Translations under genes and position numbers: made by a program
Shown here: positions 5,150-13,804 of the stretch, piece after piece
How positions within the stretch are numbered: the first letter of the stretch is position 1
Layout: the number at the start of each line of letters is the position of its first letter
Assembly (NCBI RefSeq): GCF_044647545.1
Contig: NZ_CP172818.1
Direction: 5' to 3' (one strand)
DNA length: 64,000 nt
From: Escherichia coli
GTDB lineage: Bacteria; Pseudomonadota; Gammaproteobacteria; Enterobacterales; Enterobacteriaceae
Notes under the pieces: generated by a model
Told to the model about the DNA's origin: nothing
Database searches by the model: none
What the model saw: only the letters and a program-made list of their open reading frames with translations

Positions 5150-7684
5150 ATGGCCGGGAATGACCGCGAGCCAATTGGACGCAAAGGGAAACCGACGCGT
5201 CCGGTCAAACAAAAGGTAAGCCGTCGTCGTTACGAAGATGACGATGATTACGACGATTATGATGACTATGAGGATGAAGAACCGATGCCGCGCAAAGGTA
5301 AGGGCAAAGGCAAAGGGCGTAAGCCTCGTGGCAAACGCGGCTGGCTATGGCTGCTGCTAAAACTGGCTATCGTTTTTGCCGTGCTGATCGCCATTTACGG
5401 CGTTTATCTCGATCAAAAAATTCGCAGCCGTATTGATGGCAAGGTCTGGCAATTGCCCGCGGCAGTTTATGGCCGAATGGTCAACCTTGAGCCAGACATG
5501 ACCATCAGCAAGAACGAGATGGTGAAGCTGCTGGAGGCGACCCAGTATCGTCAGGTGTCGAAAATGACCCGTCCTGGCGAATTTACCGTGCAGGCCAACA
5601 GCATTGAGATGATCCGCCGTCCGTTTGATTTCCCGGACAGTAAAGAAGGGCAGGTGCGTGCACGTCTGACCTTTGATGGCGATCATCTGGCGACGATCGT
5701 CAATATGGAGAACAACCGTCAGTTCGGTTTCTTCCGTCTTGATCCGCGCCTGATCACTATGATCTCTTCACCAAACGGTGAGCAACGTCTGTTTGTGCCG
5801 CGCAGTGGTTTCCCGGATCTGCTGGTGGATACTTTGCTGGCAACAGAAGACCGTCATTTTTACGAGCATGATGGGATCAGTCTCTACTCCATCGGACGTG
5901 CGGTGCTGGCAAACCTGACCGCCGGACGCACGGTGCAGGGGGCGAGTACGCTGACGCAACAGCTGGTGAAAAACCTGTTCCTCTCCAGCGAGCGTTCTTA
6001 CTGGCGTAAAGCGAACGAAGCCTACATGGCGCTGATCATGGACGCGCGTTACAGCAAAGACCGTATTCTTGAGCTGTATATGAACGAGGTGTATCTCGGT
6101 CAGAGCGGCGACAACGAAATCCGCGGCTTCCCGCTGGCGAGCTTGTATTACTTTGGTCGCCCGGTAGAAGAATTGAGCCTCGATCAGCAGGCGCTGTTGG
6201 TGGGTATGGTGAAAGGGGCGTCCATCTACAACCCGTGGCGTAACCCGAAACTGGCGCTGGAGCGACGTAACCTGGTGCTACGTCTGCTGCAACAGCAACA
6301 GATTATTGATCAAGAACTCTATGACATGTTGAGTGCACGTCCGCTGGGTGTTCAGCCGCGCGGTGGGGTGATCTCTCCTCAGCCAGCCTTTATGCAACTG
6401 GTGCGTCAGGAGCTGCAGGCGAAATTAGGCGATAAGGTAAAAGATCTCTCCGGCGTGAAGATCTTCACTACCTTTGACTCGGTGGCCCAGGACGCGGCAG
6501 AAAAAGCCGCCGTGGAAGGCATTCCGGCACTGAAGAAACAGCGTAAGTTGAGCGATCTGGAAACCGCGATTGTGGTCGTCGACCGCTTTAGTGGTGAAGT
6601 TCGTGCGATGGTCGGTGGTTCTGAGCCGCAGTTTGCGGGCTACAACCGTGCGATGCAGGCGCGTCGTTCGATTGGTTCTCTTGCAAAACCAGCGACTTAT
6701 CTGACGGCCTTAAGCCAGCCGAAAATCTATCGCCTGAACACGTGGATTGCCGATGCGCCAATCGCGCTGCGTCAGCCGAATGGCCAGGTCTGGTCACCGC
6801 AGAACGATGACCGTCGTTATAGCGAAAGTGGCAGAGTGATGCTGGTGGATGCGTTGACCCGTTCGATGAACGTGCCGACGGTAAATCTGGGGATGGCGCT
6901 GGGGCTGCCTGCGGTTACGGAGACCTGGATTAAACTGGGCGTACCGAAAGATCAGCTGCATCCGGTTCCGGCGATGCTGCTGGGGGCGTTGAACTTAACG
7001 CCAATCGAAGTGGCGCAGGCATTCCAGACTATCGCCAGCGGCGGTAACCGTGCACCGCTTTCTGCGCTGCGTTCGGTAATTGCGGAAGATGGCAAAGTGC
7101 TGTATCAGAGCTTCCCGCAGGCGGAACGCGCGGTTCCGGCGCAGGCGGCGTATCTGACACTATGGACCATGCAGCAGGTGGTACAACGTGGTACGGGGCG
7201 TCAGCTTGGGGCGAAATACCCGAACCTGCATCTGGCAGGGAAAACAGGGACTACCAACAATAACGTAGATACCTGGTTTGCGGGCATTGACGGCAGCACG
7301 GTGACCATCACCTGGGTAGGCCGTGATAACAACCAGCCGACCAAACTGTATGGAGCCAGCGGGGCAATGTCGATTTATCAGCGTTATCTGGCTAACCAGA
7401 CGCCAACACCGCTGAATCTTGTTCCGCCAGAAGATATTGCAGATATGGGCGTGGACTACGACGGCAACTTTGTTTGCAGCGGTGGCATGCGTGTCTTGCC
7501 GGTCTGGACCAGCGATCCGCAATCGCTGTGCCAGCAGAGTGAGATTCAGCAGCAACCGTCAGGCAATCCGTTTGATCAGTCTTCTCAGCCGCAGCAACAA
7601 CCGCAACAGCAACCTGCTCAGCAAGAGCAGAAAGACAGCGACGGTGTAGCTGGTTGGATCAAGGATATGTTTGGTAGTAATTAA
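5150..7684 (+). CDS. mrcB: penicillin-binding protein 1B (bifunctional glycosyltransferase/transpeptidase), 844 aa
   Basis: [19 protein letters not shown]..., acidic [15 protein letters not shown] tract, TM segment, GT motif [12 protein letters not shown] motifs, Q-rich C-terminus. Confidence 0.95.
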
Positions 7685-7700
7685 CGTCTAAGCGTGACAT

Positions 7701-7725
7701 ACCGGATGGCGAGTTGCCATCCGGT
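7701..7725 (+). terminator. perfect 10-bp inverted repeat hairpin just downstream of mrcB stop
   Basis: accggatggc-gagtt-gccatccggt followed by A/T-rich sequence; lacks a clean U-tract. Confidence 0.4.
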
Positions 7726-7844
7726 AAAATAACATCCCACCTAAAGTATTAACCCTTTCTTTTCATCTGGTTGTTTATTAACCCTTCAGGAACGCTCAGA
7801 TTGCGTACCGCTTGCGAACCCGCCAGCGTTTCGAATATTATCTT

Positions 7845-7880
7845 ATCTTTATAATAATCATTCTCGTTTACGTTATCATT
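7845..7880 (+). promoter_or_regulatory. Fur box / iron-regulated promoter region of fhuA
   Basis: tctttATAATAATCATTctcgtttacgTTATCATTcac contains tandem Fur hexamer-like repeats (ATAATCATT / TTATCATT) overlapping a TATAAT -10 at 7850-7855. Confidence 0.6.
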
Positions 7881-7903
7881 CACTTTACATCAGAGATATA
7901 CCA

Positions 7904-10087
7904 ATGGCGCGTTCCAAAACTGCTCAGCCAAAACACTCACTGCGTAAAATCGCAGTTGTAGTAGCCACAGCGGTTAGCGGCATGTCTGTTTATGCACAGG
8001 CAGCGGTTGAACCGAAAGAAGACACTATCACCGTTACCGCTGCACCTGCGCCGCAAGAAAGCGCATGGGGGCCAGCTGCAACTATTGCGGCGAAGCACTC
8101 TGCTACTGCGACTAAAACGGATACACCAATTGAAAAAACGCCGCAGTCTATTTCGGTTGTGACAAATGAAGAGATGCAGATGCATCAATTTCAGTCTGTA
8201 AAAGAAGCATTAGGTTATACACCTGGCGTTACAGTTAGCAGTCGTGGTGCTTCTAATACATATGATTTTGTTATCATTCGTGGTTTCTCATCTGTTGGCC
8301 TGAATCAAAATAACTACCTTGATGGACTAAAACTTCAGGGCAACTTTTATAACGATGCTGTGATTGATCCTTACATGCTCGAGAGGGTTGAACTGATGCG
8401 TGGGCCGACGTCTGTTCTCTATGGAAAAAGTAATCCTGGTGGGATTATTTCTATGGTGAGTAAGCGCCCGACCACTGACCCCCTGAAAGAAATTCAGTTT
8501 AAAATGGGGACGGATAATCTGTTTCAGACCGGATTCGATTTCAGTGATGCGCTGGATGATAACGGTGAGTTCTCCTACCGTTTGACTGGCCTCGCTCGCT
8601 CAACAAACGAACAGCAGAAAAACTCTGAATCTCAGCGTTATACCATTGCTCCATCATTCTCATGGCGGCCGGACGACAAAACCAATTTAACTTTCCTGTC
8701 CTATTTCCAGAATGAACCAGAAACGGGTTATTACGGTTGGTTGCCGAAAGAGGGGACCGTTGAGCCATTGCCTAATGGTAAGCGTCTACCGACTGACTTC
8801 AATGAAGGTGCGTCGAATAATACATACTCCCGTAACCAGAAAATGGTGGGATATAGTTTTGAACATGGTTTTAATGACACCTTCACCGTGCGTCAGAATC
8901 TGCGTTTCAGTGAAATGAAAACCTCACAGAAAAGTGTTTATGGCCACAGGGATTGCCAGCGATGGTCATACCCTAAACCGCGGGACAGTGGTGGATAATG
9001 AGCGTCTACAAAACTTTAGCGTTGATACCCAACTTGAAAGTAAGTTTGCTACAGGTGACGTCGGGCATACTTTGCTGACAGGGGTAGACTTCATGCGTAT
9101 GCGCAATGATATCAATGCCAGCTTTGGATCTGCACCATCCATCGATCTTTATAACAAATACCATCCTGAATACTTTGCATTTGGTAGCGCAGAGCCATAC
9201 CAGATGAATGAAAGCAAACAAACAGGTATTTATGTTCAGGATCAGGCGGAATGGAATAAATGGGTATTCACTCTGGGGGGGCGCTACGATTGGTCTAAGC
9301 AAGCGACCAAAAACTCTTATACGCCGACTGAAGGTTATATTGAGCGCAATGATCATCAGTTCACCTGGCGCGGTGGTGTAAATTACTTATTCGATAATGG
9401 TATTTCACCTTACTTTAGCTATAGCCAGTCCTTTGAACCGAGTGCTTTCGATCTGGGAACAAGCAACCCGCGCGTTTCCTATAAGCCATCGAAAGGTGAA
9501 CAGTATGAAGCTGGCGTAAAATATGTTCCGAATGATATGCCGGTCGTTGTTACGGGCGCAGTCTATCAATTGACGAAAACAAATAACCTGACAGCAGACC
9601 CAACAAACCCCATTAGCGAAGTCCCGCAGGTGAGATTCGCGCTCGTGGTGTGGAACTTGAAGCAAAAGCGGCGTTAAATGCCAATATTAACTTGACGGCT
9701 TCTTATACCTACACCGATGCGGAATACACCAAAGACACCAATCTCAAAGGTAAAACTCCAGAACAAGTACCGAAGCATATGGCATCTCTCTGGGGGGATT
9801 ATACCTTCAATGAAGGGCCGTTTTCTGGTTTAACATTGGGAACAGGTGGTCGTTTTATTGGTTCCAGCTATGGTGATCCGGCGAACACTTTTAAAGTGGG
9901 TAGCGCAGCTGTAATGGATGCTGTTGTAAAATATGATCTGGCACGCTTTGGTATGGCGGGATCCAGCCTTGCTGTGAACGTCAACAATTTGCTCGATCGT
10001 GAGTATGTTGCCAGTTGCTTCCAGACCTATGGCTGCTTCTGGGGCGCAGAACGTCAGGTCGTTGCAACCGCAACCTTCCGTTTCTAA
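7904..10087 (+). pseudogene. fhuA: ferrichrome outer-membrane transporter FhuA (TonB-dependent receptor), reading frame interrupted by two frameshifts
   Basis: Three consecutive ORFs (7904..8998, 8934..9677, 9650..10087) each translate to FhuA-like sequence; ORF1 and ORF3 share a frame, ORF2 is +1; junctions at ~8945-8957 and ~9629-9630. Confidence 0.85.
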
Positions 10088-10097
10088 TTTCTCTTTT

Positions 10098-10117
10098 GGG
10101 GCACGGATTTCCGTGCC
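10098..10117 (+). other. intra-operon stem-loop between fhuA and fhuC
   Basis: gggcacgg-attt-ccgtgccc perfect 8-bp stem immediately after fhuA stop. Confidence 0.5.
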
Positions 10118-10137
10118 CGTTTCACAAGTTGGCTGTT

Positions 10138-10935
10138 ATGCAGGAATACACGAATCATTCCGATACCACTTTTGCACTGCGTAATATCTCCTTTCGTGTG
10201 CCCGGGCGCACGCTTTTGCATCCGCTGTCGTTAACCTTTCCTGCCGGGAAAGTGACCGGTCTGATTGGTCACAACGGTTCTGGTAAATCCACTCTGCTCA
10301 AAATGCTTGGCCGTCATCAGCCGCCGTCGGAAGGGGAGATTCTTCTTGATGCCCAGCCGCTGGAAAGCTGGAGTAGCAAAGCGTTTGCCCGCAAAGTGGC
10401 TTATTTGCCGCAGCAGCTTCCTCCGGCAGAAGGGATGACGGTGCGTGAACTGGTGGCGATTGGTCGTTACCCGTGGCATGGCGCACTAGGGCGCTTTGGT
10501 GCGGCAGATCGCGAAAAGGTCGAGGAAGCTATCTCGCTGGTTGGCTTAAAACCGCTGGCGCATCGGCTGGTCGATAGTCTCTCTGGCGGCGAACGTCAGC
10601 GGGCGTGGATCGCCATGCTGGTGGCGCAGGATAGCCGTTGTCTGTTGCTCGACGAACCGACCTCGGCGCTGGATATCGCCCACCAGGTTGATGTGCTGGC
10701 GCTGGTGCATCGTTTAAGTCAGGAGCGTGGCCTGACGGTCATTGCCGTGCTGCACGATATCAATATGGCTGCGCGTTACTGTGATTATCTGGTCGCCCTG
10801 CGCGGCGGTGAAATGATTGCTCAGGGAACGCCTGCGGAAATTATGCGCGGCGAAACCCTCGAAATGATTTATGGCATCCCGATGGGTATTTTGCCGCATC
10901 CGGCGGGTGCTGCACCTGTGAGTTTTGTTTATTGA
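10138..10935 (+). CDS. fhuC: ferric hydroxamate ABC transporter ATP-binding protein (265 aa)
   Basis: MQEYTNHSDTTFALRNISFRVPGRTLL; Walker A GHNGSGKST, ABC signature LSGGERQR, Walker B LLLDEPTSALD. Confidence 0.95.
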   Translation: MQEYTNHSDTTFALRNISFRVPGRTLLHPLSLTFPAGKVTGLIGHNGSGKSTLLKMLGRHQPPSEGEILLDAQPLESWSSKAFARKVAYLPQQLPPAEGMTVRELVAIGRYPWHGALGRFGAADREKVEEAISLVGLKPLAHRLVDSLSGGERQRAWIAMLVAQDSRCLLLDEPTSALDIAHQVDVLALVHRLSQERGLTVIAVLHDINMAARYCDYLVALRGGEMIAQGTPAEIMRGETLEMIYGIPMGILPHPAGAAPVSFVY

Positions 10936-11825
10936 TGAGCGGCTTACCTCTTATTTCGCGCCGTCGACTGTTAACGGCGATGGCGCTTTCTCCGTTGTTA
11001 TGGCAGATGAATACCGCCCACGCGGCGGCTATTGATCCCAATCGTATTGTGGCGCTGGAGTGGTTGCCGGTGGAATTACTGCTGGCGCTCGGCATCGTGC
11101 CTTACGGCGTGGCGGATACCATCAACTATCGCCTGTGGGTCAGCGAACCGCCATTGCCGGACTCAGTGATTGACGTTGGTTTGCGTACAGAACCTAACCT
11201 TGAACTGCTGACCGAAATGAAACCATCGTTTATGGTCTGGTCGGCAGGATATGGCCCTTCACCAGAAATGCTGGCACGTATTGCGCCGGGTCGCGGATTT
11301 AACTTCAGTGACGGCAAACAGCCGCTGGCGATGGCGCGTAAATCACTGACGGAAATGGCAGATTTACTTAACCTGCAAAGCGCAGCAGAAACGCATTTAG
11401 CGCACTATGAAGACTTTATCCGCAGCATGAAACCCCGCTTTGTGAAGCGTGGTGCACGCCCGTTATTGCTGACGACACTTATCGATCCGCGCCATATGTT
11501 GGTCTTCGGTCCAAACAGCCTGTTCCAGGAAATTCTTGATGAGTACGGCATCCCAAATGCCTGGCAAGGGGAAACCAACTTTTGGGGCAGTACCGCCGTC
11601 AGTATCGATCGTCTGGCAGCGTATAAAGACGTTGATGTGCTCTGTTTTGATCACGACAACAGCAAAGACATGGATGCGCTAATGGCAACCCCGCTGTGGC
11701 AGGCCATGCCGTTTGTCCGCGCCGGACGCTTTCAGCGCGTTCCGGCGGTCTGGTTCTATGGTGCGACGCTTTCTGCAATGCACTTTGTGCGTATTCTGGA
11801 TAACGCCATCGGAGGTAAAGCGTGA
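10935..11825 (+). CDS. fhuD: ferric hydroxamate periplasmic binding protein (296 aa)
   Basis: MSGLPLISRRRLLTAMALSPLLWQMNTAHAAAIDPNRIVALEW...; ATGA overlap with fhuC stop. Confidence 0.93.
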   Translation: MSGLPLISRRRLLTAMALSPLLWQMNTAHAAAIDPNRIVALEWLPVELLLALGIVPYGVADTINYRLWVSEPPLPDSVIDVGLRTEPNLELLTEMKPSFMVWSAGYGPSPEMLARIAPGRGFNFSDGKQPLAMARKSLTEMADLLNLQSAAETHLAHYEDFIRSMKPRFVKRGARPLLLTTLIDPRHMLVFGPNSLFQEILDEYGIPNAWQGETNFWGSTAVSIDRLAAYKDVDVLCFDHDNSKDMDALMATPLWQAMPFVRAGRFQRVPAVWFYGATLSAMHFVRILDNAIGGKA

Positions 11826-13804
11826 GTAAACGAATTGCGCTTTTTCCGGTGTTATTGCTGGTGCTGCTGGTGGTTGCTGCTGCGGCGTTGACCTGGATGA
11901 ACTTCTCGCAGGCGCTGCCGCGCAGCCAGTGGGCGCAGGCCGCCTGGTCGCCGGATATTGACGTCATCGAGCAGATGATTTTTCACTACAGCTTGTTGCC
12001 GCGTCTGGCGATTTCGCTGCTGGTGGGCGCGGGCCTGGGGATGGTGGGCGTGCTGTTTCAGCAAGTGCTGCGTAACCCGCTGGCGGAACCGACGACGTTG
12101 GGTGTTGCAACAGGCGCGCAACTGGGGATTACCGTCACCACGCTCTGGGCGATCCCAGGTGCTATGGCGAGCCAGTTTGCTGCGCTGGCAGGGGCTTGTG
12201 TTGTTGGCTTAATCGTCTTTGGCGTCGCGTGGGGGAAACGGCTTTCGCCGGTAACGCTGATCCTCGCGGGGCTGGTAGTGAGCCTTTATTGCGGCGCAAT
12301 CAATCAGTTACTGGTTATCTTCCATCATGACCAACTGCAAAGCATGTTCCTGTGGAGCACCGGAACGCTGACGCAAACCGACTGGGGCGGCGTTGAGCGT
12401 TTATGGCCGCAGCTGCTGGGCGGCGTGATGCTGACGTTATTGCTACTTCGCCCGTTAACCCTGATGGGGCTTGATGATGGCGTGGCGCGCAATCTCGGGC
12501 TGGCCTTGTCGCTCGCGCGTCTGGCGGCGTTGTCGCTGGCGATTGTCATCAGTGCGCTGCTGGTGAACGCGGTGGGGATTATCGGCTTTATCGGGTTGTT
12601 CGCGCCGCTGCTGGCAAAAATGCTGGGGGCGCGGCGTCTGCTGCCACGGTTAATGCTGGCGTCGCTGATTGGTGCGTTAATTCTGTGGCTTTCTGATCAA
12701 ATCATCCTCTGGCTGACTCGCGTGTGGATGGAAGTTTCCACCGGTTCGGTCACTGCGTTGATCGGTGCGCCGCTGTTACTGTGGTTGCTGCCGCGTTTAC
12801 GCAGCATTAGCGCGCCGGATATGAAGGTGAACGATCGTGTCGCGACTGAACGCCAACACGTGCTGGCGTTTGCCCTCGCGGGCGGCGTGCTGCTGTTGAT
12901 GGCTGTGGTGGTGGCGCTGTCGTTTGGTCGTGATGCGCACGGCTGGACGTGGGCGAGCGGGGCGTTGCTCGAGGATTTGATGCCCTGGCGCTGGCCGCGA
13001 ATTATGGCGGCGCTGTTTGCTGGCGTCATGCTGGCGGTGGCGGGCTGTATTATTCAGCGGCTGACCGGAAACCCGATGGCAAGCCCGGAAGTGCTGGGGA
13101 TTAGCTCCGGCGCGGCGTTTGGCGTGGTGTTAATGCTGTTTCTGGTGCCGGGTAATGCCTTTGGCTGGCTGTTACCCGCAGGCAGTCTCGGGGCGGCGGT
13201 GACGCTGTTGATCATTATGATCGCCGCCGGACGCGGTGGATTTTCCCCACACCGCATGTTACTGGCGGGGATGGCGTTAAGTACCGCGTTCACGATGCTT
13301 TTGATGATGTTGCAGGCAAGTGGTGACCCGCGAATGGCGCAAGTTCTGACCTGGATTTCCGGTTCGACCTACAACGCGACCGAGGCGCAGGTCTGGCGCA
13401 CGGGAATTGTGATGGTAATTTTGCTGGCGATTACCCCGCTGTGCCGCCGCTGGCTGACCATTTTACCGCTGGGCGGTGATACCGCACGAGCCGTGGGGAT
13501 GGCGCTGACGCCGACGCGAATTGCGCTGCTGCTGTTAGCGGCTTGCCTGACAGCGACTGCGACAATGACCATTGGACCGTTGAGTTTTGTTGGTTTAATG
13601 GCACCGCATATTGCGCGGATGATGGGCTTTCGACGGACGATGCCGCATATTATGATTTCGGCGCTGGTGGGTGGTTTACTGCTGGTGTTCGCTGACTGGT
13701 GTGGGCGGATGGTGCTGTTTCCATTCCAGATCCCAGCGGGGCTGCTGTCGACCTTTATCGGCGCGCCGTATTTTATCTATTTGTTGAGAAAGCAGAGCCG
13801 TTAA
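11822..13804 (+). CDS. fhuB: ferric hydroxamate ABC transporter permease (660 aa, duplicated permease domains)
   Basis: 660-aa hydrophobic ORF, 4-bp overlap with fhuD. Confidence 0.93.
   Translation: MSKRIALFPVLLLVLLVVAAAALTWMNFSQALPRSQWAQAAWSPDIDVIEQMIFHYSLLPRLAISLLVGAGLGMVGVLFQQVLRNPLAEPTTLGVATGAQLGITVTTLWAIPGAMASQFAALAGACVVGLIVFGVAWGKRLSPVTLILAGLVVSLYCGAINQLLVIFHHDQLQSMFLWSTGTLTQTDWGGVERLWPQLLGGVMLTLLLLRPLTLMGLDDGVARNLGLALSLARLAALSLAIVISALLVNAVGIIGFIGLFAPLLAKMLGARRLLPRLMLASLIGALILWLSDQIILWLTRVWMEVSTGSVTALIGAPLLLWLLPRLRSISAPDMKVNDRVATERQHVLAFALAGGVLLLMAVVVALSFGRDAHGWTWASGALLEDLMPWRWPRIMAALFAGVMLAVAGCIIQRLTGNPMASPEVLGISSGAAFGVVLMLFLVPGNAFGWLLPAGSLGAAVTLLIIMIAAGRGGFSPHRMLLAGMALSTAFTMLLMMLQASGDPRMAQVLTWISGSTYNATEAQVWRTGIVMVILLAITPLCRRWLTILPLGGDTARAVGMALTPTRIALLLLAACLTATATMTIGPLSFVGLMAPHIARMMGFRRTMPHIMISALVGGLLLVFADWCGRMVLFPFQIPAGLLSTFIGAPYFIYLLRKQSR

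Follow-up and report, generated by a model that had tools for sequence, protein, structure and literature searches.

The fhu locus of the Escherichia coli chromosome segment analyzed here carries a fhuA that is disrupted as written, which raises the question of whether the Fur-box promoter upstream of the broken receptor gene is itself intact, and whether it can still drive the transport genes fhuC, fhuD, and fhuB. The locus lies within a stretch of 64,000 nucleotides (the window), whose first ~150 bp fall inside gluQRS and whose genes run gluQRS-dksA-sfsA-thpR-hrpB-mrcB-fhuA-fhuC-fhuD-fhuB-hemL, with an rRNA operon just past the window end. The four fhu genes are flanked by mrcB and hemL and follow each other in operon order on a single strand, with the end of mrcB at 7684 and the fhuA ATG at 7904. 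The closest complete genomes are those of strain FDAARGOS_497 and its relatives, which are near-identical to the window.

Comparison with K-12 MG1655 revealed no base difference from 7800 to 7910, and when the alignment was begun at 7740 only three mismatches were found, near 7740-7746. The claim of the preliminary description that the Fur-box promoter upstream of the disrupted fhuA is intact was thus borne out, in that the sequence matches the experimentally characterized K-12 sequence base for base. The 94-bp promoter (7810-7903) is present in 5421 of the 5426 complete E. coli genomes and unchanged in 3802 of them. The block remains invariant even where its flanks and the fhuA coding sequence diverge, and also in strains that have a fimbrial gene rather than mrcB upstream. 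When a single genome of each species was scanned, fhu genes preceded by the paired motifs were found in Escherichia spp., Pseudenterobacter timonensis, and Enterobacter sp. BIGb0383; conserved across these three genera are the TTG of the -35 hexamer, the hexamer TATTAT, and the block ATAATAATCATTCTCGTTTACnTTATCATT (n = G or C), and the spacer length is kept.

These data indicate that fhuACDB very probably has its normal sigma-70 promoter and Fur operator at 7812-7886, unaltered here, with their behavior in this strain extrapolated from K-12. The assignment is made because of identity to K-12, position, and conservation, as motif matching alone did not rise above chance. The element is the already characterized Fur-controlled fhuA promoter, and is in this sense known biology. 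That the promoter should be intact ahead of a broken receptor gene is also the default expectation, and the relevance of the observation lies mainly in correct annotation.

Several other features were noted around this region. A perfect 11-bp inverted repeat (TACCGGATGGC / GCCATCCGGTA, 5-nt loop) occupies 7700-7726, beginning 16 nt past the mrcB stop. Since it has no T-run it is not a canonical terminator, and some readthrough from mrcB to fhuA is therefore conceivable. An exact 11-bp direct repeat, TATTAACCCTT, occurs at 7747-7757 and 7776-7786, 29 bp apart and upstream of the fhuA -35 hexamer; K-12 has both copies, and other E. coli keep part of the arrangement. An Rfam search of 7000-10500 returned only a chance-level match.

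The transcription start could be placed by transfer from K-12, and the elements of the promoter core are then as follows.

7812-7817, + strand: -35 hexamer TTGCGA, reported by a promoter scan; its TTG is conserved in Escherichia, Enterobacter, and Pseudenterobacter, and its position fits the K-12 start
7836-7841, + strand: TATTAT, most likely the functional -10 hexamer, ending 7 nt before the mapped start
7848, + strand: putative transcription start, equal to K-12 167428 through 100% identity, 56 nt upstream of the ATG
7850-7855, + strand: TATAAT, the -10 of the preliminary description; at +3 to +8, probably transcribed and part of the Fur operator

The combination TTGCGA-18 bp-TATTAT was recovered independently by the promoter scan, and TATTAT is unchanged in six of six aligned enterobacterial sequences. 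Cappable-seq of K-12 MG1655 grown in M9 glucose placed a strong sense start at 167428 (read score 31.4), the sole start listed on this strand between 164235 and 167477, and 167477 is weak (PMC4782308). As the mapped start is only 2 nt upstream of TATAAT, that hexamer is probably transcribed and is better taken as operator, the Fur box extending from +1 to about +20. The start assignment comes from a single K-12 data set, obtained in M9 glucose. The mapped base is a T, with which transcripts seldom begin, and the true start may thus lie a few bases away.

The preliminary description had named TATAAT as the -10, overlapped by the Fur repeats. Under that arrangement Fur would block recognition of the -10 and transcription would begin near 7862. 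In favor of this arrangement, TATAAT is a perfect hexamer inside the Fur box, and both Escherichia and Enterobacter sp. BIGb0383 preserve it. Nevertheless, K-12 has no listed starts between 167428 and 167477, and its strong start is 2 nt upstream of the hexamer. In addition, a spacer of 16-18 bp would leave GCGTTT, CGTTTC, and GTTTCG (within 7826-7833) as the candidate -35 hexamers, and the promoter scan reports no promoter with TATAAT. In Pseudenterobacter timonensis the position reads CATAAT, whereas TATTAT is kept there. We therefore regard this use of TATAAT as quite unlikely, and the naming of TATAAT as the -10 as probably wrong, since the start at 7848 fits TATTAT and TTGCGA. Another -10, 29 nt upstream of the ATG, was predicted by Shultzaberger et al., who did not map it (PMC1807945).

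The sequence of 7845-7880 is ATCTTTATAATAATCATTCTCGTTTACGTTATCATT, and every string named in the preliminary description is present in it: TATAAT at 7850-7855, ATAATCATT at 7854-7862, and TTATCATT at 7873-7880. A repeat search also found the direct repeat ATCATTCTCGTT (7857-7868) / ATCATTCACTTT (7875-7886), whose units are spaced by 18 bp, that is, 3 x 6 bp. The Fur-like features are the following.

7841-7871, + strand: overlapping Fur-like registers spanning 31 bp at 3- or 6-bp spacing, from about -7 to +24
7847-7865, + strand: primary Fur box, matching the 19-mer consensus GATAATGATWATCATTATC at 14 of 19 positions, the best match of the region
7852-7866, + strand: 7-1-7 core TAATAATCATTCTCG, centered on 7859, 45 nt upstream of the ATG
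7873-7886, + strand: second Fur-like repeat, TTATCATT plus ATCATTCACTTT, with a full 19-mer match of only 10/19

The 19-mers beginning at 7841, 7844, 7847, 7850, and 7853 score 12, 12, 14, 11, and 13, respectively, and the 15-mer TGAnAATnATTnTCA differs from 7852-7866 at two positions. The region thus has both the overlapping 3- and 6-bp registers of a Fur operator and repeat units 18 bp apart. The cluster at 7841-7871 overlaps the promoter core, as it reaches into the -10 (7836-7841) at its 3' end and includes the K-12-mapped start at 7848.

Could these AT-rich repeats resemble a Fur box by chance and have no regulatory role? Motif counts in the window are what such an explanation would predict. 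With up to two mismatches, the 15-mer motif has 4 matches in the whole window against 2.6 expected from shuffles, which is no enrichment; a score of 14/19 is reached by five 19-mers across the window, so that consensus matching does no better than the shuffled expectation, and the full 19-bp consensus has no site in the window with three or fewer mismatches. Against it, the same sequence in K-12 has gel-shift and ChIP-exo evidence, and it is invariant over thousands of genomes and across three genera. Chance resemblance is, in our view, extremely improbable.

The best Fur-like site of the window is a separate one, TGAGAATCATTCTGA at 29909-29923 in the map-rpsB intergenic region, which matches the Fur 7-1-7 motif with one mismatch. 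It corresponds approximately, by estimated coordinates, to a K-12 Fur ChIP-exo peak at 189588-189600 that was assigned to map (PMC10164565 supplement).

The evidence for Fur binding in K-12 can be placed directly on the window. Chen et al. (2007) reported a cluster of Fur sites at fhuA, the strongest of which, of 19.5 bits at 167439, was gel-shifted (PMC2189734). K-12 position 167439 corresponds to 7859 in the window, at -45 from the ATG. Table 4 of that paper lists fhuA with 3 walkers (overlapping sites) over 31 bp (PMC2189734), in agreement with our cluster at 7841-7871. The same two fhuA sites, of 10.7 and 19.5 bits, were given by Shultzaberger et al. (2007), also with gel shifts (PMC1807945). 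Gao et al. (2023) found a Fur ChIP-exo peak at 167456-167466/8 in both MG1655 and W3110 (PMC10164565); 167456-167468 maps to 7876-7888 in the window. Upon deletion of fur, fhuA rose by log2 1.1 in K-12 and 5.0 in W3110, and fhuC, fhuD, and fhuB rose by log2 ~3.1-3.3 in W3110 (PMC10164565 supplement). A fhuA promoter-lacZ fusion was under Fur repression in the work of Beauchene et al. (2015) (PMC4676285). A further paper on a fhuA promoter and Fur box, with promoter engineering, was set aside, as it concerns the fhuA of Vibrio cholerae.

Taken from K-12 to this strain, RNA polymerase would use TTGCGA (7812-7817) and TATTAT (7836-7841) and would start near 7848. In iron-replete cells, the overlapping sites at ~7841-7871 and a weaker site near 7873-7886 would be bound by Fe2+-Fur dimers; with the start and the first transcribed bases covered, polymerase would be denied access to the promoter. 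Iron scarcity would release Fur and allow transcription of the operon.

The coding region downstream of this promoter is different. As written, fhuA is disrupted in the following way, relative to intact relatives.

7904-8998, + strand: 5' part of fhuA, with 347 native codons and 17 out-of-frame codons, ending at the stop at 8996-8998
8944-9625, + strand: cluster of six fhuA lesions, private to this sequence
8944, 9309, and 9456-9461: lesions 1-3, namely +1 C at 8944, -9 bp at 9309, and +3 bp with two substitutions at 9456-9461
9611, 9618, and 9625: lesions 4-6, namely +1, -1, and -1, respectively
8999-10087, + strand: remainder of fhuA, untranslated, with 28 stop codons in the N-terminal frame

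The first lesion, +1 C at 8944, changes GGCACAGG to GGCCACAGG. The truncated product of 364 aa, compared to 729 aa in an intact relative, does not comprise the full plug and 22-strand barrel. None of the 5426 complete E. coli genomes shares the lesions, the best identity over 8900-9700 being 97.8%, and an exact look-up of the truncated product in ~15 billion proteins found nothing on record. Relative to K-12 the allele is also frameshifted, and its central part has diverged, to 37-76% identity in blocks of 100 columns.

Are these lesions a real pseudogene or an artefact of the assembly? Between the window and FDAARGOS_497 there are 9 indel events and one isolated SNP (63679) in 64 kb; the only two further substitutions both flank one fhuA indel. 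This 9:1 ratio of indels to SNPs, the opposite of normal divergence, leads us to suspect sequencing or assembly error, for example through poor coverage or a mixed population, in which case the operon would be wild type. Several of the fhuA events are gains or losses of a single G or C, which speaks for such an error, and the absence of the truncated product from the protein look-up agrees with it. The indels outside fhuA are all intergenic, at 24032, 30931, and 32823 (next to the yaeH stop, in rpsB-tsf, and in pyrH-frr, respectively). Had they been shared with another near-identical strain this would have argued for natural polymorphism, but when sought there all three were absent and are thus likewise private. 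In alignments read by eye, the rpsB-tsf and pyrH-frr indels lie in GC-rich palindromic sequence.

Other observations weigh against error. Elsewhere the window shows practically no errors, and the -9 and +3 events are atypical of homopolymer errors. The probability that 6 of the 10 private events would fall within 681 bp by chance is P = 3e-10, and six events in 681 bp are therefore beyond random error and indicate that something local is responsible, be it poor resolution of this stretch or recurrent selection on the receptor. Overall, an assembly origin is a substantial possibility, although we lean against it. A second reading takes the six lesions to be real and to have arisen under recurrent selection that phage, colicin M, microcin J25, or albomycin imposed on the receptor, with the Fur promoter and fhuCDB kept for other hydroxamate siderophores, as an early stage of the route that Enterobacter sp. 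BIGb0383 appears to have taken. We consider this joint reading unlikely; if it were true, the window would show an early step toward deletion of fhuA and fusion of its promoter to fhuC, as in BIGb0383. The fhuA disruption needs read-level confirmation before biological conclusions are drawn from it.

The remaining part of the question is whether transcription from the promoter reaches the transport genes, for which these features are relevant.

10099-10118, + strand: GC-rich 8-bp hairpin, GGGCACGG/CCGTGCCC, folding at -20.1 kcal/mol (z = -4.1)
10138-10935, + strand: fhuC, intact, 265 aa, identical to FDAARGOS_497 FhuC and 99.6% identical to K-12
10935-11825, + strand: fhuD, intact, 296 aa, identical to FDAARGOS_497 FhuD and 99.3% identical to K-12
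11822-13804, + strand: fhuB, intact, 660 aa, identical to FDAARGOS_497 FhuB and 98.5% identical to K-12

None of the three transport genes has an internal stop and all are full length, so that the lesion in the DNA does not extend beyond the receptor gene, in agreement with the preliminary description. Its further claim, that the promoter still drives fhuCDB, fared less evenly. In its favor are the intact promoter and intact fhuCDB, the arrangement in BIGb0383 considered below, and the co-induction of K-12 fhuA, fhuC, fhuD, and fhuB by fur deletion, which supports their co-transcription in K-12 (PMC10164565 supplement); the literature also favors a common transcript for this operon in general. 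The uncertain part is readthrough, given that the RNA from the stop at 8996-8998 to the fhuC ATG at 10138 would be ribosome-free for 1,139 nt, and given the polarity reported for other fhuA frameshifts.

Rho-dependent polarity after premature stops is established. If the frameshift were strongly polar, Rho would stop transcription within the fhuA RNA despite the intact promoter, fhuCDB would be low, and uptake of all hydroxamates would be impaired. The untranslated RNA is not only long, with 28 stops in the N-terminal frame, but also rich in C and poor in G at 9099-9198 and 9679-9778, with C/G of 1.6-2.1 in 80-nt windows; similar values occur elsewhere in fhuA, and the rut-like criterion of C exceeding G is a heuristic only. 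A scan of the + strand from 8999 to 10137 found no promoter-like site. The discussion of a preprint that deals with FhuA diversity in Salmonella and Escherichia describes most fhuA frameshifts as strongly polar on fhuCDB (bioRxiv 10.1101/320069).

The case for strong polarity is weakened by internal starts in K-12, through which some fhuA-independent transcription of fhuCDB may exist. Two sense starts lie in the last third of K-12 fhuA, at 169124 (score 27.8) and 169215 (9.7) (PMC4782308), and an intragenic Fur ChIP-exo peak was found in W3110 at 169031-169043 (PMC10164565). These are hints of an internal, possibly Fur-influenced promoter feeding fhuCDB in K-12. K-12 169031-169215 aligns to 9383-9576 of the window. 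As the window allele has not kept the internal -10 sequences of K-12 and the scan of 8999-10137 was empty, no such promoter was recovered for it. Polarity is, moreover, usually partial. Taken together, we consider strong polarity to have a little under an even chance of being correct.

The hairpin at 10099-10118 falls after the fhuA stop and before the fhuC start, and its stem is followed by only three U. In W3110, the mRNA of fhuC, fhuD, and fhuB is ~6-10 fold below that of fhuA (PMC10164565 supplement). The hairpin may be a partial terminator or a processing signal that attenuates readthrough already in the wild type.

In our reading of 7812-7886 as the unaltered promoter and operator, fhuCDB would be made only as far as transcription survives the ~1.1 kb of untranslated fhuA RNA. 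Because of polarity, an intact promoter is no guarantee of fhuCDB expression, and the phenotype of this strain, which could lose uptake of ferrichrome alone or of every hydroxamate, is not readable from sequence.

The element can be compared to several known systems. In K-12, whose fhu locus (b0150-b0153) shares the order mrcB-fhuA-fhuC-fhuD-fhuB-hemL with the window, the Fur site at -45 and the start at -56 from the ATG of the characterized fhuA promoter and operator map onto the same bases as in the window. In the classical Fur-repressed promoters (iucA, fepA-fes, cir, and fhuF), overlapping Fur sites are clustered over the promoter core. The fhuA operator is similar to these in having 3- and 6-bp registers over ~31 bp that cover the core and the start (PMC2189734), but it differs in its weaker fit to the consensus (14/19). 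It also lies mostly downstream of the -10, on present start-site evidence, whereas the classical operators lie over the -35 and the -10.

Loss of fhuA with retention of its neighbors has been described in other bacteria. The transport genes are intact both in Salmonella Typhi, which has fhuA frameshifts, and in Rhizobium leguminosarum, which has a fhuA pseudogene beside fhuDCB (bioRxiv 10.1101/320069). In the window, too, small indels inactivate the receptor gene as written, but here the lesions occur in a single genome out of thousands and could be artefacts. The authors of the preprint argue that Typhi tolerates the polar loss of fhuCDB (bioRxiv 10.1101/320069). An independent loss of the receptor with the promoter kept was noted in a K-12 MG1655 stock (NZ_CP010438.1, 3215-6221), in which IS2 splits fhuA and the promoter is unchanged.

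A parallel for the promoter is Enterobacter sp. BIGb0383 (NZ_RJKQ01000003.1), in which mrcB and a terminator are followed by a fhuA-type promoter and Fur box and then by fhuC-fhuD-fhuB, with no fhuA. Its promoter (locus 1100-1230) reads TTGAAA ... TATTAT ... ATAATAATCATTCTCGTTTACCTTATCATT, ~50 nt upstream of the fhuC ATG, and has in common with the window the TTG, the TATTAT, and the block ATAATAATCATTCTCGTTTACcTTATCATT. A remnant of the fhuA-fhuC hairpin survives at the deletion junction. Since fhuA is cleanly absent from BIGb0383, that locus has no untranslated stretch and no polarity problem, unlike the window; and as its promoter stands directly upstream of fhuC, the fhuA promoter can serve fhuCDB alone.
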